Below are positions 9,107 through 60,685 of a stretch of DNA of 64,000 bases, piece after piece; the stretch's first letter is position 1, and the number at the start of each line of letters is the position of its first letter. A model generated the notes under the pieces. The model was given only the letters and a program-made list of their open reading frames with translations, was not told the DNA's origin and did not search any database. The translations under genes were made by a program, and so were the position numbers. The stretch comes from Myxococcota bacterium. GTDB taxonomy: Bacteria; Myxococcota_A; UBA9160; SZUA-336. Location of the stretch: NCBI GenBank assembly GCA_965226855.1, contig CBDDEE010000024.1:8971-72970 (forward strand), given 5' to 3'.

Positions 9107-10990
9107 ATGGCAAAACCGAACGGCCCGGACGAGGACGGCGATCCGCGCGTCCTGGAGCTCGACTCCGTAATCGTCCGCTTTGCTGGCGACTCGGGCGACG
9201 GAATGCAGCTAACGGGGACGGAGTTCACTCGCGCGGCGGCGTTGTTCGGCAACGACATCGCCACGTTCCCGGACTTCCCCGCGGAGATCCGCGCCCCCGC
9301 GGGAAGTCTCGCTGGCGTGTCCGGCTTCCAGCTGCAGTTCTCGAGCATGGACATCTTCACTGCTGGCGACGCACCCGACGTGCTCGTGGTCATGAATCCC
9401 GCGGCGCTCAAGACGAACGTTGCAGACCTGATCCCTGGGGGCATGCTCCTGGTTGACGTCTCGTCCTTCAAGAAGCGCAACCTCGAGTTGGCAGGCTACG
9501 AGAAAAACCCGCTCGAGGACGGGAGCCTCGCCGACTTCCGGGTGATCGAGATCGACTTCTCCAAGCACGTGACCGCGGCCCTCAAGGGCAGTGGTCTCTC
9601 GACCAAGGACACGCAGCGGACGCGAAACATGTTCGCGTTGGGCATCGTGTTCTGGCTCTACAACCGCGATCCCGAGCCCGAGGTCGAGGCGATTCGAGCC
9701 AAGTTCGCTCGTAGACCGGAGATCGCCGAGTCGAACGCCAAGGTCTTCATGACCGGGTTCCACTTTGGTGAGACGGCGGAGCTCGTGGACGCCACGTATC
9801 GGGTTCCCCCGGCCAAGCTCGAGCCCGGACTCTACCGCCACGTGACGGGAAACGAGGCCGCCGCGCTCGGCATCGTGGCGGCGGGCAAGCTCGCCGGGAT
9901 TAAGGTCTTCTACGCGAGCTACCCGATCACCCCGGCCTCCGACATCTTGCACCACCTCTCGGGCTACAGCCGCTACGGAGTGACGGCGTTCCAGGCCGAG
10001 GACGAGCTCGCGGCGGTGACGGCAGCCGTCGGCGCCTCGTTTGGAGGCGTGCTGGGGGTGACCGGAACGTCCGGGCCAGGGTTCACGCTCAAGCAGGAGG
10101 GGATCGCGCTCGCGGTCGTGACGGAGCTCCCGCTCCTGATCGTGAACGTGCAGCGGGCCGGACCCTCGACCGGGATGCCGACCAAGCCGGAGCAGGGCGA
10201 TCTGATGCAGGCCCTGGTCGGGCGGAACAGCGACTGCCCGGTTGCGGTGGTGGCTCCCGCGACGCCGGCCGACTGCTTCGAGGTCATGATCGAGGCGGCT
10301 CGCTTCGCCATCGAGCACATGACGCCGGTCGTCTACCTCTCGGACGCCTCGCTTGCCAACGGCTCGGAGCCCTGGCTCTTGCCTGACCCCGACCAGCTCG
10401 CACCGATCCGCGCCGAGTACTGCACGGATCCCGAGGGCTTCCAGCCGTTCCTCCGCAATGACGACTTCGTGCGGCCGTGGGCGGTGCCGGGGACGCCGGG
10501 CCTCGAGCACCGCATCGGGGGTCTGGAGAAGGAGGACGTGACCGGAAACGTCTCCTACGACCCGCTGAACCACGAGCACATGAACCGCGTCCGCTACGCG
10601 AAGCTCGAGCGCATAGCGAACGGCATTCCGCTCGCCGAGATCGACGGTCCGGAGCGGGGCGATGTGCTGCTGGTTGGCTGGGGCGGGACCTTCGGAGCGC
10701 TGCACCAGGCCGCGGTGGCGCTGCGCAGCGAGGGCGCGGACGTGGGACACCTCCACCTCCGCTACCTGAATCCCCTCCAAACCAACGTGGGCGAGCTCCT
10801 GTCCCGCTACCGCCACGTCATCGTCGCGGAGCTCAACATGGGCCAGCTCCTCTCGATCCTGCGCGACCGCTTCCTGGTCGACGCAAAGGGCCTGAACAAA
10901 GTGCAGGGCCAACCCTTCAAGGTTCAGGAGATCATCAACACCGTTCGCCCGCTGCTTCCCACTCGGGCGCTTAGTGAGGCGAGGCTATGA
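9107..10990 (+). CDS. korA: 2-oxoacid:ferredoxin oxidoreductase, alpha subunit (fused gamma+alpha domains)
   Basis: 627 aa with an N-terminal gamma-like domain and an alpha domain (YPITPASDILH). ATGA overlap with the beta subunit. Confidence 0.85.
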   Translation: MAKPNGPDEDGDPRVLELDSVIVRFAGDSGDGMQLTGTEFTRAAALFGNDIATFPDFPAEIRAPAGSLAGVSGFQLQFSSMDIFTAGDAPDVLVVMNPAALKTNVADLIPGGMLLVDVSSFKKRNLELAGYEKNPLEDGSLADFRVIEIDFSKHVTAALKGSGLSTKDTQRTRNMFALGIVFWLYNRDPEPEVEAIRAKFARRPEIAESNAKVFMTGFHFGETAELVDATYRVPPAKLEPGLYRHVTGNEAAALGIVAAGKLAGIKVFYASYPITPASDILHHLSGYSRYGVTAFQAEDELAAVTAAVGASFGGVLGVTGTSGPGFTLKQEGIALAVVTELPLLIVNVQRAGPSTGMPTKPEQGDLMQALVGRNSDCPVAVVAPATPADCFEVMIEAARFAIEHMTPVVYLSDASLANGSEPWLLPDPDQLAPIRAEYCTDPEGFQPFLRNDDFVRPWAVPGTPGLEHRIGGLEKEDVTGNVSYDPLNHEHMNRVRYAKLERIANGIPLAEIDGPERGDVLLVGWGGTFGALHQAAVALRSEGADVGHLHLRYLNPLQTNVGELLSRYRHVIVAELNMGQLLSILRDRFLVDAKGLNKVQGQPFKVQEIINTVRPLLPTRALSEARL

Positions 10991-12018
10991 GCGTTCAGAC
11001 GGCAGATGCCCCGAAGCTGACGAAGAAGGACTTCATCGCGGATGAGGACGTGCGCTGGTGCCCGGGCTGCGGAGACTACGCGATCCTCGCGCAGATGCAG
11101 AAGGTCATGCCCGAGCTGGGAGTCCCGCGCGAGAACATCGTTTTCGTTTCTGGAATCGGCTGCAGCTCGCGCTTTCCGTACTACATGAACACATTCGGGT
11201 TTCACACCATCCACGGGCGCGCGCCGGCCATCGCAACGGGGCTGAAGATCGCGCGGCCCGACCTGTCCGTGTGGGTGGTGACGGGCGACGGCGACGGGCT
11301 GTCGATCGGTGGAAACCACCTGATCCAGATGCTGCGTCGCAACGTCGATCTGAAGATCCTGCTGTTCAACAACAGGGTCTACGGACTGACGAAGGGACAG
11401 TTCTCGCCCACCTCCAATACGGGCATGAAGACGAAGTCCTCACCGAACGGATCGGTGGCCCGTCCTTTCCGCACGCTCTCGCTCGCGCTCGGAGCCGAGG
11501 CGACCTTCGTCGCGCGGACGGTCGACACGGAGACCCGTCACCTGCAGGACATGATCCGCCGGATGGCGGAGCACAAAGGCTCTGCCTTCCTCGAGATCTA
11601 CCAGAACTGTCCCGTCTACAACGACGGGGCGTTCGACGAAGTCAAGGACAGAAAGATCAAGTCCGACCACCTGCTCGTCCTCGAGCAGGGTCAGCCGCTC
11701 GTCTACGGCAACGATCACGATCGCGTGCTCAAGCTGAACCCGACCCACCTGCGTCTTTACGCCGGCCACGTCGGCGCCGCGGACGACGGAGTCGAGGTCT
11801 TGCATGACGAGACGAACCGCGATCCGACGCTCTCTATGTTGCTGGCCCGCTGTGACGCGCCCGACTTCCCCACGCCGATCGGCGTGCTGCGGGCCGTCGA
11901 CGAGCCGACCTTCGACGGCGAGACGTACGAGCAGGGCCAGGTCGAGCTCGCTCGTAGCGACACCGGCCTGGGCGACCTCCTGTTCTCCGGCGATCGCTGG
12001 ACCGTCTCCCGGGATTAG
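10987..12018 (+). CDS. korB: 2-oxoacid:ferredoxin oxidoreductase, beta (TPP-binding) subunit
   Basis: WCPGCGDYAIL and GDGDGLSIGGNH TPP motifs. Confidence 0.85.
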   Translation: MSVQTADAPKLTKKDFIADEDVRWCPGCGDYAILAQMQKVMPELGVPRENIVFVSGIGCSSRFPYYMNTFGFHTIHGRAPAIATGLKIARPDLSVWVVTGDGDGLSIGGNHLIQMLRRNVDLKILLFNNRVYGLTKGQFSPTSNTGMKTKSSPNGSVARPFRTLSLALGAEATFVARTVDTETRHLQDMIRRMAEHKGSAFLEIYQNCPVYNDGAFDEVKDRKIKSDHLLVLEQGQPLVYGNDHDRVLKLNPTHLRLYAGHVGAADDGVEVLHDETNRDPTLSMLLARCDAPDFPTPIGVLRAVDEPTFDGETYEQGQVELARSDTGLGDLLFSGDRWTVSRD

Positions 12019-12459: not shown

Positions 12460-12505
12460 CGGAACTTGGGGACGGTCCTTAATCAGAACTTTTTCTGGTG
12501 GTCCG
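12460..12505. repeat. half copy of the inner arm of the nested palindromic repeat family
   Basis: cggaacttggggacggtccttaatcagaact plus the spacer start matches 62845-62885 with one mismatch in the arm. Confidence 0.7.
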
Positions 12506-12515
12506 GGGAAGCGGG

Positions 12516-12734
12516 CTAGCCTTTGAGTTCCGGGAGAATCTCGTCCGGTTCGGGGAAGCGGCCGGTCTCCGACTTCGAGTAGATCGTGCGTCCGTCGACG
12601 ACGACGTCGAACACGCCGTTGCCCCCGCGAATCAGCTCGGTCTCGACGCCGACTTTCTCCTTGATCGTGGCCGCCAGACTGGTGGCCTGTGGGAGGTAGT
12701 TTCAGGCGCCGCAGTAGGTGATGGAGATGTGCAT
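12516..12734 (-). CDS. SelW/Rdx-family selenoprotein; Sec encoded by in-frame TGA at 12702-12704
   Basis: Own translation: MHISITYCGA-U-NYLPQATSLAATIKEKVGVETELIRGGNGVFDVVVDGRTIYSKSETGRFPEPDEILPELKG-stop. It has a CxxU motif at the N-terminus, the frame stays open after the TGA, and a hairpin lies 15 nt downstream. Confidence 0.8.
12670..12686 (-). promoter_or_regulatory. candidate bacterial SECIS apical hairpin
   Basis: RNA GCCACC-AGUCU-GGCGGC starts 15 nt 3' of the UGA. The loop contains GU, as in the fdhF SECIS. Confidence 0.45.
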
Positions 12735-12788
12735 CGCCAGATCGTACCCCGAGTCGGCAGCACCGGCAAAGGCGCTACCATCCGACGT

Positions 12789-13886
12789 GTGCTGACGGTA
12801 GCCGACTTTCTCGACGCACTCGGTCGGCGTGCGCCGCTCGAGAAGGCGGCGGCCTGGGATCCCGTCGGCCTGCAGCTCGGCGATGCCTCCGCGCGCGTGG
12901 AGCGGGTCGCGTTGTGTCACGAAGTGACCGAGGACGTCGTCGCGCGTCTGGAGCAGGCTCCCGTGGACTTGCTCGTCAGCTACCACCCGTTGCTGTTCCG
13001 AGCCACGAACACGCTCCTCAGTGGAGCGACGCCAGAGGGCAGGACGTTGCGGCTGGCGCGCCGCGGCACCGCGCTCGCCGTGGTCCATACGAGCTTCGAC
13101 ATCGCCGAAGGCGGAACCTCCGACGCGCTGGCGGAGGTGCTCGGTCTGGTGGAGCTCTCCGGCTTTGCCCCCCTGTACGGTCCAGACGTTCTGAAGGTCG
13201 TCACCTTCCTGCCCGCCGAAGCCGCGCCGCCGGTGCTGCAGGCGGTCTCCGCAGCCGGCGCGGGACGGATCGGAAACTACTCGAGCTGCTCCTATCGCTC
13301 CGAGGGGGTCGGAACGTTCTTCGCCGGAGCCGGAACGCAGCCGAGCATGGGCTCGCAGGGACAGCTGAACGAGGAACGCGAGGTGCGGCTCGAATTCGTG
13401 GTGCCGCGTTCCAGGGAGGCTGAGGCGCTCGGAGCGCTCGTGGCGGCGCATCCCTACGAGGAGCCGGCCTACGACGTGTACGAGCGGCGTGGCAACGCCG
13501 GAATGCTCGGACGGATCGGGACTCCCGCCGCGGGGACCACGCTCCAGGGGCTGGCGCAGCGCGCGGCGGAGGAGCTGCGGACGAAGACGCTGCGGCTCGC
13601 TGGCGATCCCGAACGAATTCTCGACCGCGTCGCCGTGATCCCCGGCTCGGGCTCTCCGTTGCTGGACCTGGCTGCGGCGGCGGGAGCGGACGCTGTCGTG
13701 ACGGGCGATCTGGGCCACCACGTTGCGCGAGCGGCCAATGATCGGGGCCTGTGCCTTCTCGATGCTGGACACGTCCCTACGGAGCGCCCCGGACTCGAGC
13801 GCCTGTACGTTGCGCTCGCGGCCCTCGGGGCCGAGACGCTGAGCTTCCTCGACCTCGATCCCGATCCGTGGGCCGCGCCGAGCTGA
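12789..13886 (+). CDS. Nif3-like dinuclear metal centre protein (GTP cyclohydrolase 1 type 2 homologue)
   Basis: LTVADFLDALGRRAPLEKAAAWDPVGLQLGD...LLVSYHPLLF...DAVVTGDLGHH. GTG 12789 is chosen because the upstream part of the track ORF is the antisense of the selenoprotein gene. Confidence 0.75.
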   Translation: MLTVADFLDALGRRAPLEKAAAWDPVGLQLGDASARVERVALCHEVTEDVVARLEQAPVDLLVSYHPLLFRATNTLLSGATPEGRTLRLARRGTALAVVHTSFDIAEGGTSDALAEVLGLVELSGFAPLYGPDVLKVVTFLPAEAAPPVLQAVSAAGAGRIGNYSSCSYRSEGVGTFFAGAGTQPSMGSQGQLNEEREVRLEFVVPRSREAEALGALVAAHPYEEPAYDVYERRGNAGMLGRIGTPAAGTTLQGLAQRAAEELRTKTLRLAGDPERILDRVAVIPGSGSPLLDLAAAAGADAVVTGDLGHHVARAANDRGLCLLDAGHVPTERPGLERLYVALAALGAETLSFLDLDPDPWAAPS

Positions 13887-13887
13887 G

Positions 13888-14682
13888 ATGCCGCGAATCC
13901 TGGACGCGCTGGGCAGGAGCCACGACTTCCAGCGCAACCCGCAGCGAATCGTGTCGCTCGTCCCGTCGATCACCGAGACGCTCTTCGGGCTCGGTCTGGA
14001 TACCGAGATCGCGGGAGTTACAGACTTTTGTGTTCACCCTGCAGAGCGCGTGCGCTCGAAGGTCCGCGTTGGAGGAACGAAGAATCCCTCGCTCGACGCG
14101 ATCCTGGGCCTCGAGCCCGACCTGGTCATCGCGAACAAGGAGGAGAACCGCCGGCGCGACGTCGAGCGCCTGGAAGCCGCGGGGGTACGGGTCTTGGTGA
14201 CCTACGCGCGTACGCTCGCAGAAGCCATTACGGACATCCGAACCCTTGGCGTGGTGACGGGAACCGACCCGGTCGCGGAGGAGATCGCCACTCGAGTCGA
14301 GCGCGCGCGAGCAGCGATCACCCCGCGCGAGCACGGGGACCGCGTGGCGGCCCTCATCTGGAAGCGGCCCTACATGGCGGTTGGCGGGGATACCTTTGCG
14401 CACGATCTCATGCGGGTCTGCGGTGGGGTGAACTGCTTTGCCGGCAGGGAGCGCTACCCGCGCATCGACGCGCATGCGCTCGAGGAAGCAGCTCCGGAAG
14501 TGATCCTGCTGCCCACGGAGCCGTACTGCTTCGGCGAGTTCGATCGAGACGAGCTCCTGCAGCTCGATTGCGCCGCAGCTCGCAGCGGCAGGGTCCACGT
14601 GATCGAGGGCGAGCTGCTCAGCTGGTACGGCCCACGCATGGAGCGCGCGCTGCAGACGCTCTCGCGGCTGATCGCTCCCTGA
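13888..14682 (+). CDS. BtuF-like cobalamin/metal-binding protein (ABC-type periplasmic binding protein fold), with no obvious signal peptide
   Basis: PQRIVSLVPSITETLFGLGLDTEIAGVTDFC...DLVIANKEEN... Confidence 0.65.
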   Translation: MPRILDALGRSHDFQRNPQRIVSLVPSITETLFGLGLDTEIAGVTDFCVHPAERVRSKVRVGGTKNPSLDAILGLEPDLVIANKEENRRRDVERLEAAGVRVLVTYARTLAEAITDIRTLGVVTGTDPVAEEIATRVERARAAITPREHGDRVAALIWKRPYMAVGGDTFAHDLMRVCGGVNCFAGRERYPRIDAHALEEAAPEVILLPTEPYCFGEFDRDELLQLDCAAARSGRVHVIEGELLSWYGPRMERALQTLSRLIAP

Positions 14683-14895
14683 CTTGTGGGACCCAGGGCG
14701 CGGGCGCCCGCGCCCTTCCCACCTCCGCTCAGTCTAGGGCCTTCGCTGCGCGCACCGCTTCGCGGTGCTTGCAGGGTTGCCACTCTTGTGGGACCCGGCG
14801 CGCGAGCGGTCGCGCGCCACCCACCTTCGCTCAGGTCTAAGGCCTTCGCTGCGCGCACCGCTTCGCGGCGCTTGCAGGTTGCCTGCAAGTCCCGC
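14683..14895. repeat. two tandem units of about 100-110 bp from the outer arm of the palindromic repeat family
   Basis: Unit 1 is 14683-14784 and unit 2 is 14785-14895. Both begin CTTGTGGGACCC and share ...GGCCTTCGCTGCGCGCACCGCTTCGCGG(T/C)GCTTGCAGG... Confidence 0.75.
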
Positions 14896-14899
14896 CTAG

Positions 14900-16170
14900 C
14901 AGGCTGCGGAGAAAGTGACTGGGTTGGGCGGGACGCCTCTGACGGGAGGCGTGCCGAGCAGGGAGAGGGATCGCCGTTCCCGGTACGAACCGGTTCGGTG
15001 TCGCACGGGTAGATCTTGCGGGATCATGAGCTATGTCGCCTCCAACAGGTTGCGGATACGGACCAGGTTGTAGGCCGCAGCAGTGAAGGTGAAGACCCAG
15101 CCGACCCGATCCGTGCCCCGGTGCCGGGTCTTGCGCATCAAGCCCACCGTCTTCATCCAGCCAAACACCTCCTCCACCCGTTTGCGGAAGCGCTGGCTCA
15201 CCTCGTAGCCCGGGTGTCCTGTGGTCCTTCGATCGATCGCGCTTCGGCGGTTCGTCGTGTTCTGTGCCACGTGCGGGGTAACGCTCCAGGCCCGAAGCGC
15301 CTGCACAAAGCTCTTGGCGTCGTAGCCCTTGTCTCCAGCCAGGGTGATCCGGCGAGCGCCCCCCAGACCCAGCACCATCTCGAGAGCCGCTTCGCGCTCC
15401 GCATACCCCGACGCCTGAGTGAGCTTCGCCGCCACCACCAGGCCGTTGCGGTTCTCCGTCACGACGTGTCCCTGATACGCGAGCCGCGCGCCCTGGCCCC
15501 TCATCCCCGCCAGTCGGGCGTCCGGATCCGTCCTCGACGCATGCGTCTGGTTGCTCCGCTTCTCGCCCCGGAAGTTGACCGTCGGGTTGCCCGGGTCGTC
15601 ATCGTCCCTGCGCTTCTCGTCCTTGCGCACGAAGCTCTTCTGGCTCGCCCACGCCTCGATCAGCGTCCCGTCCACCGTGAAGTGCTCCGATGACACCAAC
15701 CCCTCCGACTCCGCCTGCGCCAGCACCGCCTCGAAGAAATGCTGAGCGATCTCGCCCTTCAGCAGCCGTTCCCGATTCTTGGTGAACACCGTCGCGCTGA
15801 ACACCTCATCGTCCAGCTCCAGGCCCACGAACCAGCGGTAGAGCAGGTTGTAGTCGATCTGCTCGATCAGCTGGCGCTCGCTCCGGATCGTGTACAGCAC
15901 CTGCAACAGCAGCGCCCGCAACAGCTGCTCCGGCGGGACCGACGGTCGGCCGACCCCTTTGGCGTAGATACCATCGAAGCGTCGCGACAGCTGCTCCAGC
16001 GCCGCGTCCACCAGTCGCCGGATCGCTCGAAGCGGATGGTCCTCGGGAATCCGGGACTCCAGCGATACGTAGCTGAAGATCCCACCCTGGAGCGTCTGCG
16101 GTCCTCTCACATCTCCCCCTTGGGGCTTCCCTCAAAGGTACCCTTCGATGAGGAGTTTTTCAGCAGCCTG
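14900..16170 (-). mobile_element. IS5-family insertion sequence (about 1.27 kb) flanked by a duplicated CTAG
   Basis: Single DDE transposase ORF. Terminal inverted repeats are CAGGCTGCGGAGAAAGT (left) and CAGGCTGCTGAAAAACT (right, reverse complement). CTAG lies at 14896-14899 and 16171-16174. The flanks GTCCCGC / GCGGGAC extend the perfect inverted match to 19 bp (14889-14907 vs 16163-16181). Confidence 0.75.
15031..16110 (-). CDS. IS5-family DDE transposase
   Basis: N-terminus QGGIFSYVSLESRIPEDHPLRAIRRLVD (InsH-type N-terminal domain). The DDE region has FTVDGTLIEAWAS...TLAGDKGYD...RKRVEEVFGWMK. Confidence 0.85.
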   Translation of the reverse strand: MRGPQTLQGGIFSYVSLESRIPEDHPLRAIRRLVDAALEQLSRRFDGIYAKGVGRPSVPPEQLLRALLLQVLYTIRSERQLIEQIDYNLLYRWFVGLELDDEVFSATVFTKNRERLLKGEIAQHFFEAVLAQAESEGLVSSEHFTVDGTLIEAWASQKSFVRKDEKRRDDDDPGNPTVNFRGEKRSNQTHASRTDPDARLAGMRGQGARLAYQGHVVTENRNGLVVAAKLTQASGYAEREAALEMVLGLGGARRITLAGDKGYDAKSFVQALRAWSVTPHVAQNTTNRRSAIDRRTTGHPGYEVSQRFRKRVEEVFGWMKTVGLMRKTRHRGTDRVGWVFTFTAAAYNLVRIRNLLEAT

Positions 16171-16174
16171 CTAG

Positions 16175-16248
16175 GCGGGACGCGCAGTGAGGCGAAGCCG
16201 AACGGAGAGTGGGTGGCGCGCGACCGCTCGCGCGCCGGGTCCCACAAG
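16175..16248. repeat. inverted copy of the outer arm of the palindromic repeat family (right flank of the IS)
   Basis: Its reverse complement, tcttgtgggacccggcgcgcgagcggtcgcgcgccacccac, is identical over about 41 bp to 14784-14824. Confidence 0.75.
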
Positions 16249-16279
16249 ACCGACGGTGTAGGTTGCGATCTCGCCGCGC

Positions 16280-16891
16280 TTAAACGAGGTCGGCGTGGAC
16301 GATCTTTGCCCCTGCTTTGGCCATGGCGGCCAGGGCGCGATCGCCATCGCCCGCCCCCAGGTCGACCGCGCGACAGCCGTCCTCGATCACGTGCGTGCGG
16401 AAGCCGAGCGACAGCGCGTCCTGGGCGGAGAAGCGAACGCAGTAGTCGGTCGCTAGCCCGAGCAGCCAGACCTCGTCGACACCCCGACCCTTGAGGAAGC
16501 CGCCGAGCCCTGTGTCCCGCCGGTGGGCGTTGTCGAAGAACGTGCTGTAGCTGTCGACGTGGCGATCGGTCCCCTTCTGAAAGACGGCCTCCACGCGCTG
16601 CTCGTCGAGACCGGTGGCGAACTCCGCCCCTCGAGTGTCCTGCACGCAATGGTCCGGCCAAAGCGTCTGCGGCAGTCCGTAGAGGTCGATCTGGTTGCCT
16701 GGCCGCTTGCCCGGATGCTGGCTTGCGAAGCTCAGGTGATCGGCCGGGTGCCAGTCCTGCGTGCAGACGACGAGGGGGAAGCGGGGTTGGACTGCGTTGG
16801 CAACGTCGATCACGGCATTCCCGTCAGGAACCGCGAGCGAGCCTCCGGGCAGGAAGTCGTTCTGCAGGTCGACGAGGATGAGGGCTCTCAC
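16280..16891 (-). CDS. pncA: nicotinamidase / pyrazinamidase
   Basis: [22 protein letters not shown]...WPDHCVQ...[11 protein letters not shown] start in a GTGA overlap with the pncB stop. The upstream 330 codons of the track ORF are a shadow of pncB. Confidence 0.85.
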
Positions 16892-55555: not shown

Positions 55556-56298
55556 GCGGCGTGCTGGACGAGCGGATCGCGCTCGTCACTGGGGGCTCTC
55601 GCGGCATCGGCCAGGCGATCTGCCTCGAGCTAGCGCGCGCCGGCGCCAGCGTCGTCTTCACCTACAAGAGCAGTCCGGACGGGGCGCGCGTAACAGAGAA
55701 GCGCATCCTCGAGGACGGAGGCCGCAGCCGCGCGGCACGCTGCGACGTGGCCGATGGTGAGGCAGTCGACGCGCTGGTCGCGGGAGTCGTCAAGGAGGAG
55801 GGGCGCGTCGACATCCTCGTGAACAACGCGGGGATCACCCGAGACCAGGTCATCATGCGCATGAAGCCCGAGGACTTCGATGCCGTGATTGCAACGAACT
55901 TGCGTGGCACCTGGAACCTGTGTCGGGCAGCGAGCCGGCCCATGCTCCGCGCGCGGGCCGGTCGCATCATCAACCTCTCATCCGTGGTCGCGGAGATGGG
56001 AAACCCTGGCCAGTCGAGCTATGCGGCCAGCAAGGGCGGCATCGAGGCCCTGACCCGCTCGCTCTCACGCGAGCTCGGCAGCCGGGGGATCACGGTGAAC
56101 GCCATCGCGCCGGGCTTCATCCAGACGGACATGACGGCGGCGCTGCCCGAGGACGCTCAGAGAGCACTGCTAGCACGCATTCCGCTGGGCGAGCTCGGTA
56201 CTGTCGAAGATGTCGCGCGCGCGGTACGCTTTCTCGCCTCCGACGATGCGAGATATATCACCGGGCAGGTGATACACGTGAACGGTGGGTTGACCTGA
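55552..56298 (+). CDS. fabG: 3-oxoacyl-ACP reductase
   Basis: [20 protein letters not shown] and YAASKGG motifs. ATGA overlap with fabD. Confidence 0.9.
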
Positions 56299-56311
56299 CC
56301 GGAGGGGCACG

Positions 56312-56548
56312 ATGGGTGTCGAGGAGAAGGTTCGAGACATTATCGTGGAGCAGCTCGGAGTGGCTCCCGGCGAGGTCGTTCCGGAGGCGTCCTTGATCGA
56401 CGATCTCGGCGCGGACTCGCTGGACATCGTAGAGCTGGTGATGGCGATCGAGGAGGAGTTCGACCTCGAGATCTCCGACGACGACGCGGAGAGGATGCAG
56501 ACGATCGGGGACGCCATCACGTGCGTCGATGAAAAGACGAAAGCCTGA
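56312..56548 (+). CDS. acpP: acyl carrier protein
   Basis: [19 protein letters not shown] (DSL phosphopantetheine site). Confidence 0.95.
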
Positions 56549-56551
56549 GCG

Positions 56552-57826
56552 GTGCCTCCCCGCCTGACGACCCGGACGATCGAGCTGCGTCGCGTGGTGG
56601 TCACGGGGATGGGAACCGTGAACCCGCTCGGCAACGATGTGGCAACGACCTGGAACGCGTTGCTCAAGGGGAGCTCGGGCATCGCGCGGGTCGAGGGCTT
56701 CTCGACAGACGACTGCAGCGCGAAGATCGCGGGCCAGCTCAAGGGCTTCGACCCGCTCACAGTGATGGACAAGAAAGAGGTGCGACGCCTCGACCCCTAC
56801 CTGCAGTTCTCGATGGCGGCGGCGGTCGAGGCGATTCGGGACTCGGGCTTCGAGGTGACTGAGGACGAGGCCGACAGGACGGGTGTTCTCGTCGGTTCCG
56901 GCATCGCGGGACTGATGACCATGCTGGACAACTGCGAGACGCTGCTCACTCGCGGACCGATGAAGATCTCACCCTTCTTCGTTCCCAGTGCGATCGCGAA
57001 CATGGCCTCGGGCCTGATCTCCATACGCTACGGGGCGCGCGGACCCAACTCCTGCGTCGTCACGGCATGCACGACGGGCACCCATGCCATCGGGGACGCC
57101 GCGCGCATCATCCAGCGCGGCGAAGCGGACGTGATGATCGCGGGCGGTGGCGAGGCGCCCGTGAACCGGCTCGGGCTCGGCGGCTTCGGCACGATGCGGG
57201 CGCTGTCGACGCGCAACGACGATCCGGAGCGTGCCAGTCGGCCCTTCGACCTGGGTCGGGACGGCTTCGTCTGTGCCGAAGGCGCCGGAGTGGTAGTGCT
57301 CGAGAGCCTGGAGCACGCGCTGCGGCGTGGGGCTCGGATCCACGCCGAGATCGTGGGCTACGGGATGTCCGCAGATGCCCACCACATGACCGCCCCGCCC
57401 GAGAACGGCGTGGGCGCACAGCTCGCGATGCGCAAGGCGCTCGCGGATGGGGACCTCGCTCCTGGGGACGTCGACTACATCAACGCTCACGGGACCAGCA
57501 CCCAGTACAACGACAAGATCGAGACCTACGCGATCCGCCAGGTCTTCGGAGAGCATGCAGACGAGCTCGCGGTCTCGTCGACCAAGTCGATGACCGGCCA
57601 CGCGCTCGGAGGCGCCGGCGGCATGGAGGCCATCTTCACGATCCTGACGGTTCGAGAAGGTAAGATCGCCCCGACCATCAACTACACCGACCCGGATCCG
57701 GACTGCGATCTCGACTACGTGCCGAACGTGATGCGCGAGATCCCAGTACGGGTGGCGCTGTCGAACTCCTTCGGGTTCGGCGGCACGAACGGAGCGCTGG
57801 CGATCGCTCGCTACGATGAGGAGTAG
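56552..57826 (+). CDS. fabF: 3-oxoacyl-ACP synthase II
   Basis: [15 protein letters not shown]...ACTTG...NAHGTST...NSFGFGGTN. Confidence 0.9.
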
Positions 57827-59580: not shown

Positions 59581-60685
59581 GACGGGGTCGACGCGCGAAG
59601 CAGACCGGGTCTTCATGCGTGAGGCGCTACGGCTGGCTGCACGCGCCAGCGGGAGGACGGCTCCGAATCCGCTCGTGGGCAGCGTGGTCGCCCGGGGCGG
59701 ACGGCGCATCGCGCGCGGCTACCACACCCGCGCCGGTCATCCGCATGCCGAGGCCGTGGCGCTTGCGCGAGCCGGGGGGGCCGCGCGGGGAGCCACGCTC
59801 TATGTGACGCTGGAGCCCTGTGCGCACACCGGTAGTACACCTCCTTGTGTCGATGCGGTGCTGGCGTCGGGCGTCCGCAGGGTGGTCGTCGGCATGAGAG
59901 ATCCGGATCCGCGAACCTCGGGCAAGAGCATCCGCAAGCTGCGCCGGGCCGGCTTAACGGTCGAGGTGGGCGCGCTTGCGGAGGAGTGCAGGCGTCTAAA
60001 CGCCGGCTTCGTGTCGCGCATCGAGCGGGGGCGCCCCTTCACCACGCTGAAGCTCGCGGCCAGTTTCGACGGGCGGATCGCGACGGCGCGCGGCGAGTCG
60101 CGCTGGATCAGCGGACCCCGCTCCCGCGCGTTCGTCCAGCAGCTGCGCGGAAGGGTGGACGCCATCGCGGTCGGCTCCGGGACCGTGGTCGCCGATGACC
60201 CCTCGCTCACCCAGCGGAGCGGCGCGCGGGTCCTGCACCGCCCGACCCGGATCGTCGTCGACTCGAGGCTGCGCACTCCCGCCAACGCGCGCCTCATCGA
60301 TCCCGAGCACCCGGGGAGCGCCTGGATCCTCACCGCGAGCGACGCCGCCCCGCGGAAGCGCCGGCAGCTCGAACGGGCGGGTGCGAGGCTCGTCAACGTG
60401 CGCGCCCGGGGGCGGTCACTCGACCTGCGCGACGCCTGGCGCAAGCTCGGACGCCTCGGCGTGAACGACCTGCTGGTCGAGGGGGGAGGCGGGCTCGCTG
60501 CCGCGTTGCTGCGCGCTGGCCTCGTCGACCGGATGCATCTCTTTCTCGCTCCGCTCTTCATCGGCTCCGACGGAAAGCCACTGATCGGTGAGCTCGGAGT
60601 GGAGCGCTTGAAACAAGCGCTCCACCCGCGCACAGTTGCTAGCCGTAAGCTTGGAGACGACCTTCTCGTGACGGCAGAGTGGTAA
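59573..60685 (+). CDS. ribD: bifunctional riboflavin biosynthesis deaminase/reductase RibD
   Basis: PNPLVGSVV...HAEAVAL...LEPCAHTGSTPPC, then a reductase domain. Confidence 0.9.
   Translation: MGRTGSTREADRVFMREALRLAARASGRTAPNPLVGSVVARGGRRIARGYHTRAGHPHAEAVALARAGGAARGATLYVTLEPCAHTGSTPPCVDAVLASGVRRVVVGMRDPDPRTSGKSIRKLRRAGLTVEVGALAEECRRLNAGFVSRIERGRPFTTLKLAASFDGRIATARGESRWISGPRSRAFVQQLRGRVDAIAVGSGTVVADDPSLTQRSGARVLHRPTRIVVDSRLRTPANARLIDPEHPGSAWILTASDAAPRKRRQLERAGARLVNVRARGRSLDLRDAWRKLGRLGVNDLLVEGGGGLAAALLRAGLVDRMHLFLAPLFIGSDGKPLIGELGVERLKQALHPRTVASRKLGDDLLVTAEW

Follow-up and report, generated by a model that had tools for sequence, protein, structure and literature searches.

Whether an in-frame TGA ends a short open reading frame or is decoded as selenocysteine (Sec) is the question raised by a minus-strand locus in the window analysed here, which is the whole 64-kb stretch of DNA from an uncultured Myxococcota bacterium. 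An earlier note on this DNA described the locus as a hidden gene of the SelW/Rdx type with a UGA-encoded Sec, and the coordinates and translation that it gave for the open reading frame are exactly those found in this analysis. Translation starts at an ATG (12734-12732), yields MHISITYCGA, reaches the TGA (12704-12702) and continues through 61 further sense codons to a TAG (12518-12516). In the list of open reading frames only codons 1-10 are present at the locus, where they form the tail of a 423-aa shadow ORF (12702-13973) that is antisense to the NIF3 gene; a 32-aa ORF with a GTG start (12516-12614) is also listed at the 3' end of the gene and is in the selenoprotein frame. Based on the family membership, conservation and RNA structure described below, we propose that the minus-strand ORF from 12734 to 12516 is very probably a functional gene for a Sec-decoded, SelW-like (Rdx family) selenoprotein of 72 residues. 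The features of the locus and its surroundings are listed in Table 1.

Table 1. Predicted features at and around the SelW-like locus (positions are those of the window).
Feature	Position	Strand	Details
Predicted SelW-like (Rdx family) selenoprotein CDS	12516..12734	(-)	72 codons + TAG stop; Sec = codon 11; from translation
C-G-A-U redox motif	12702..12713	(-)	Cys8 TGC 12711-12713; predicted Sec11 TGA 12702-12704
Putative bacterial SECIS hairpin, GGCCACCA-GUC-UGGCGGCC	12669..12687	(-)	stem begins 14 nt after UGA
Possible promoter	12741..12769	(-)	TTGCCG 12764-12769, 17 nt, TACGAT 12741-12746, 6 nt, ATG
NIF3/DUF34 gene	12789-13886		GTG start; divergent from SelW-like gene, 54 nt away
Peripla_BP_2 protein gene	13888-14682		next after NIF3
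Putative lipoprotein, 132 aa	12037-12435	(-)	80 nt downstream of SelW-like gene; no Pfam match
2-oxoacid:ferredoxin oxidoreductase	9107-12018	(+)	alpha 627 aa (POR, POR_N); beta 343 aa (TPP_enzyme_C)

The GC contents at the three codon positions of the SelW-like gene are 0.58, 0.42 and 0.86, respectively, which are typical of real genes in this window (67% GC), and the GC3 of the frame is 1.0 upstream and 0.85 downstream of the TGA. TGA terminates 18 of the 29 well-supported ORFs in the window and is the commonest stop codon there. Given that TGA is the usual stop, the organism is on the standard code, and the TGA at codon 11 needs a local recoding signal.

The 72-residue product was searched against profile collections with U written as C. 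It matches the Pfam family Rdx (PF10262) over residues 3-69 of 72 with an E-value of 3.3e-18 and 66.1 bits (cut-off, 22.6 bits), and the alignment is continuous across the TGA position. It also matches TIGR02174 (CXXU_selWTH) with 54.7 bits (cut-off, 34.2 bits), so that the search for Rdx/SelW similarity called for in the earlier note returned two matches above curated cut-offs that span the TGA. With 87.3 bits, the product falls 0.7 bits under the cut-off of 88 for the NCBIfam equivalog NF041051 (SelTWH_Campy); because of this narrow miss, the gene is not filed under that Campylobacter-type equivalog. A sequence search of the PDB identified MIEN1 (E-value of 7e-9), Atu0228, SAV_2001, 2OKA, 2OJL and 2OBK. 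In the alignments, the predicted Sec falls on the second Cys of the CxxC motif in Atu0228, MIEN1 and the other PDB matches, as well as in P0002, a Cys-form homologue that is 67% identical to the window protein. The TGA is thus found at the second redox position of a C-x-x-U motif, where it had been placed before, opposite a Cys in both homologues and solved structures.

The fold was modelled with AlphaFold2 on P0002 and not on the window protein. The model (pLDDT of 90.6) displays a thioredoxin-like order of strand (residues 3-8), helix (residues 14-28), three strands and a helix; the redox motif is located after strand 1 and before helix 1. Foldseek matched it to 2FA8, 3DEX, 2OJL and 2P0G with TM scores of 0.90-0.93 and rmsd values of 1.1-1.8 A, and further matches are MIEN1 and mouse SelW. 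The homologue model supports a predicted SelW-like (Rdx) fold for the product of the window gene.

If the TGA is part of a coding sequence, it and the codons on both of its sides should be traceable in other genomes. A scan of GTDB species-representative genomes identified 457 confirmed relatives, the best 80 loci of which were aligned together with the window locus. All 81 loci contain TGA at codon 11 and a redox motif of the CxxU type. The 80 loci span Myxococcota, Planctomycetota, Vicinamibacterales and other Acidobacteriota, Desulfobacterota, Spirochaetota, Betaproteobacteria, Binatia, Opitutales and Eisenbacteria. An N-terminal (M/V)xIxITYC and the C-terminal domain are conserved throughout the alignment, and ATG, GTG or TTG is found at the aligned start in 78 of the 80 loci. 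Nearly all homologues in the databases are annotated as fragments of 43-62 aa that begin after the TGA, and in the DNA of four of them this in-frame TGA is also present, after a conserved (M)xIxITYCxx. These truncated entries, and the absence of the window product among the database matches, bear out the prediction that standard gene callers would miss this gene.

Compared with its two closest relatives (L001 and L005, ~87-92% nucleotide identity), the window gene differs by 15-18 synonymous and 3-4 nonsynonymous codon changes. The synonymous changes are found on both sides of the TGA; downstream of it there are 14 synonymous vs. 3-4 nonsynonymous changes, and neither frameshifts nor extra stops were seen in this part of the gene in the close relatives. 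As judged from the aligned codons, this pattern demonstrates purifying selection upstream as well as downstream of the TGA. The earlier note had proposed that a lack of conservation downstream of the TGA in orthologues would speak against a selenoprotein; the downstream sequence is conserved, and the TGA is kept in every one of the 81 loci.

The local recoding signal is predicted to be a 19-nt hairpin, which folds as GGCC.ACCA-GUC-UGG.CGGCC with a minimum free energy (MFE) of -9.9 kcal/mol. It consists of seven pairs and one A-C mismatch, with a loop that is either GUC or, when the A-U closing pair is open, AGUCU. The loop G-U is at 12679-12678, and the distance from the UGA to the loop is 21-22 nt. 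The current model of bacterial SECIS elements includes an apical loop of 3-9 nt and an upper stem of 4-16 bp, a G within the first two loop positions (usually as N1-G-[G/U]-N-N2, in which N1 and N2 are paired), a distance of 16-37 nt between UGA and loop and an MFE of -7.5 kcal/mol or lower (PMC13188914). The hairpin at 12669-12687 agrees with all four criteria of this model (PMC13188914). The same element had been delimited previously as 12670-12686 with a stem beginning 15 nt after the UGA; the hairpin is indeed located there, but one outer G-C pair had been left out, and with this pair the full span is 12669-12687 and the stem begins 14 nt after the UGA.

Folding of the single sequence yields a moderate z-score of -2.0 relative to shuffled sequences, 7 of 200 of which fold as well. 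Comparison among 78 distinct orthologues is more informative. In these sequences 89.6% of the hairpin cells are paired, vs. 22-48% in controls in which the 3' partners were slid by 1-3 columns. Compensatory double changes are found in 28 cells, vs. 5.2 expected, and the observed covariation score was reached by none of 500 shuffles. Pair 24-36, whose two bases are the third positions of the Ala codons GCN17 and GCN21, is C-G in 62 orthologues, U-A in 6, G-C in 4, G-U in 3, U-G in 2 and A-U in 1, and is unpaired in none. Since these are synonymous third positions, their covariation is beyond explanation by protein coding. The codon for Ser19, which supplies the loop G-U, is AGT in all 68 of the Ser-bearing loci despite the GC3 of 0.86 of the gene; the loop G is invariant and the loop U is kept in at least 90% of the orthologous sequences. 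RNAalifold alone recovered just the upper four pairs of the hairpin, with a weak energy, because internal mismatches are frequent and the outer pairs are variable, for which reason the explicit count of pairs is more informative. Rfam detected no SECIS family in the whole window at the gathering threshold or in 12500-12800 at a permissive threshold, where its single match, to a lncRNA model, is noise. The fit to the bacterial model and the covariation across orthologues support the earlier claim that a bacterial SECIS follows the UGA.

The Sec machinery was also searched for. ARAGORN identified no tRNA-Sec in the 64-kb window or in 84 related loci, Rfam identified none in the window, and selA, selB and selD are absent from the window and from the flanks of the related loci according to tblastn searches with SelA, SelB and SelD of E. 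coli, whose one match was to a generic GTPase in a related locus (L017). The genome presumably encodes SelB and tRNA-Sec elsewhere and hence a working system for Sec insertion, to which the purifying selection downstream of the UGA points indirectly.

Based on these results, we propose the following mechanism. Once the ribosome meets the UGA of codon 11, the hairpin that begins 14 nt further on, with its A-GUC-U loop, would serve as a bacterial SECIS and recruit SelB, GTP and Sec-tRNA(Sec), so that Sec would be inserted and translation would not terminate. The product would be a minimal thioredoxin-like protein, whose Cys8-x-x-Sec11 pair is located where helix 1 starts. Cys8 and Sec11 presumably cycle between the selenol/thiol and selenenylsulfide states, in which case the protein would function as a thiol-dependent oxidoreductase. 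Incorporation of selenium at codon 11 is a prediction, as is the action of the Cys8/Sec11 product on a redox substrate.

A Cys form of the gene was observed in a metagenome. Positions 83-298 of a 557-nt, low-coverage metagenome contig (L089) encode P0002, with TGC in place of TGA. The hairpin on this contig is identical to that of the window (GGCCACCAGTCTGGCGGCC), including the AGT codon for Ser. This Cys form is either a very recent Sec-to-Cys conversion with a fossil SECIS or an error of the contig.

Three other readings of the locus were weighed against Sec decoding. The UGA could be read as some amino acid that is not Sec, which would yield a full-length product without selenium, either through a SelB-dependent tRNA of Cys identity or through near-cognate read-through. 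For some bacteria, it has been suggested that Cys is inserted at UGA in a SelB-dependent manner. As no tRNA-Sec is located within the 64-kb window, the identity of the tRNA has to be inferred, and the TGC form of the metagenome contig, with its intact hairpin, implies that Cys is tolerated at this position there. However, all 81 loci, from many phyla, have TGA although mutation of one base would turn it into a Cys codon (TGC or TGT), the retention of a costly UGA and SECIS argues for a benefit specific to selenium, and the SelW-like family is documented as Sec-containing. Recoding to a non-Sec amino acid is accordingly rated as very improbable, and so is its particular version in which the UGA and SECIS are read by a SelB-dependent tRNA charged with Cys or another non-Sec amino acid, which would make the product a SECIS-dependent Cys protein; we give this version only a very slight chance.

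Another possibility is that a Cys-form Rdx gene was broken by a nonsense mutation from TGC or TGT to TGA. A single base change would suffice, and the source annotation is without a gene call at the locus. Such a pseudogene would hardly share an identical TGA with all of the 80 best orthologues from many phyla, its downstream substitutions would not be mostly synonymous with a downstream GC3 of 0.85, and it would not possess a conserved SECIS that covaries. By these comparative data the pseudogene reading is effectively refuted, and we consider it extremely improbable. If the UGA were instead a true stop, the first ten codons would encode a 10-residue peptide, and the conservation downstream would have to come from a short gene of its own or from an element that is not coding. 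The 32-aa ORF that starts with GTG in the same frame is a candidate for the former. It would, however, be without the whole part of the domain from strand 1 to strand 2, redox motif and helix 1 included, while the Pfam match is unbroken over residues 3-69. Amino acids are conserved between the TGA and 12614 even though this stretch contains no start codon, and no other gene overlaps 12516-12701, with NIF3 starting at 12789. The probability of a true stop is therefore negligible. Taken together, the conservation of the TGA and of the start codon, the substitution pattern and the standard code rule out that the locus is a pseudogene, that a separate gene begins downstream and that the code is reassigned.

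Decoding of the UGA as Sec in a SelW-like protein, which the earlier note had suggested, is thus supported by family, TGA conservation, SECIS covariation and the alignment with Cys forms, and it is in keeping with what is known of this family. SelW-like proteins with CxxU have been recognized as bacterial selenoproteins since ~2005, for instance in Geobacter sulfurreducens and Campylobacter jejuni (PMC1242214; PMC1794560). In the GOS ocean data no other prokaryotic selenoprotein family is as abundant and widespread, and its Sec forms outnumber its Cys forms by 427 to 56 when SelW-like proteins are counted (PMC2398784); very few Cys homologues are found in Sec-using organisms (PMC1794560). The selW gene of C. 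jejuni was unannotated and had been taken for an sRNA until full-length translation through its Sec-UGA was demonstrated by Ribo-seq and proteomics (PMC11955535); it is the only family member with support of this kind. The window gene shares with the bacterial SelW-like selenoproteins of the Sargasso Sea and GOS data, G. sulfurreducens, Desulfotalea and C. jejuni a length of ~70-80 aa, the CxxU motif at residues 8-11, a thioredoxin-like fold, the in-frame UGA, a SECIS in the coding region with G-U in a small apical loop, the scarcity of Cys forms and the frequent omission or truncation by gene callers. There is no essential difference between them, except that the window copy is from an uncultured Myxococcota and its mRNA is possibly leaderless.

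The Cys-form SelW-related proteins of solved structure (Atu0228, 2FA8; SAV_2001, 3DEX; 2OJL; 2P0G; 2OKA; 2OBK) share the fold and the position of the motif, but they possess CxxC instead of CxxU, are ~100 aa long as deposited and display just 26-38% sequence identity. Mammalian selenoprotein W (2NPB) and MIEN1 (2LJK) also belong to the Rdx family, with a CxxU or CxxC motif that follows strand 1 and precedes helix 1. Sequence identity is low, however, mouse SelW is matched less well in fold (TM score of 0.64), and eukaryotic SelW differs further by having its SECIS in the 3' UTR, where SBP2 and eEFSec are involved. The bacterial paradigm, the SECIS of E. coli fdhF, is also a hairpin directly downstream of the UGA within the coding sequence. 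Like the window hairpin, it possesses G-U in a small apical loop that is closed by an A-U pair. The stem of the window hairpin is shorter and begins one codon further from the UGA (14 nt vs. 11 nt in fdhF), and it contains an internal A-C mismatch, whereas the fdhF element contains a bulged U. Every testable defining feature is present, and the window gene is an ordinary member of a common and long-known selenoprotein family.

Upstream of the gene, an arrangement of TTGCC(G/C), 17 nt, TACGAT, 6 nt and ATG is common to the window and three relatives (L001, L002 and L005), all without a Shine-Dalgarno sequence; distant orthologues possess a GGAG Shine-Dalgarno in its place. In a promoter scan the TTGCCG/TACGAT site scored below the threshold, which no promoter reached. 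The lack of a Shine-Dalgarno sequence suggests that the mRNA may be leaderless. From the sequence arrangement, a leaderless selenoprotein mRNA may be transcribed from the 54-nt divergent intergenic region shared with NIF3, in which case the transcript would have the Sec-UGA at nt 31-33 and the SECIS at nt 48-66.

On the other side, the ORF for the putative 132-aa lipoprotein encodes an N-terminus that resembles a signal peptide with a lipobox (…AAAIFGAGCLGG…). Its adjacency to the SelW-like gene is kept in L001, L002, L005 and L037. No minus-strand terminator is predicted after the SelW-like gene, and given the conserved adjacency on the same strand the two genes may be co-transcribed. The genes for the alpha and beta subunits of the oxidoreductase are convergent with this pair, and an identical beta subunit was found in several metagenome samples. 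The neighbourhood of NIF3, Peripla_BP_2 protein and lipoprotein genes is found only in close Myxococcota relatives (L005, L009, L037 and L002), and no neighbouring gene common across phyla was found among the related loci, so that synteny gives no clue to the function.

Synteny links the window to a 2.2-Mb contig (CBDFGR010000002.1, the contig of L005) from the MAG of an uncultured Myxococcota, with 87-89% identity at the nucleotide level. A segment of ~2 kb at 14686-16764 of the window is missing from this contig, which has 62 nt there, and includes an IS5-like transposase gene (15031-16131, minus strand) with DUF772 and DDE_Tnp_1 domains. A GC-rich repeat of ~95 nt that contains a palindrome is found between genes, as a tandem pair at 14683-14780 and 14784-14877 of the window, and in L005 at 10225-10322, 10759-10858 and 14466-14558, in both orientations and with 83-90% identity. 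The repeat resembles REP or MITE elements and seems to form a family in this lineage, and the ~2-kb segment looks like a recent IS insertion beside the repeat pair.

The window was also scanned for further TGA codons with coding signal on both sides, which yielded two more candidates, at 56546 and 60669. In the ORF at 56294-57826 (plus strand), the in-frame TGA at 56546-56548 is the stop of an acyl carrier protein gene, directly after which a beta-ketoacyl-ACP synthase gene begins in that frame (ACP/FabF), so that it is no selenoprotein gene. The TGA at 60669 is located just upstream of a start codon.

Existing knowledge of selenoproteins and SECIS elements is unchanged by the window gene, and the main value of the finding is in annotation, as the gene is absent or truncated in the automatic calls for the window and for most of the orthologues found. 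The 81-locus alignment is a clean case of SECIS covariation at synonymous sites and could be used as a model in searches for this SelW-like subfamily. The restored gene adds a redox selenoprotein to a Myxococcota genome, and it predicts that the host uses selenium and possesses selA, selB, selC and selD.
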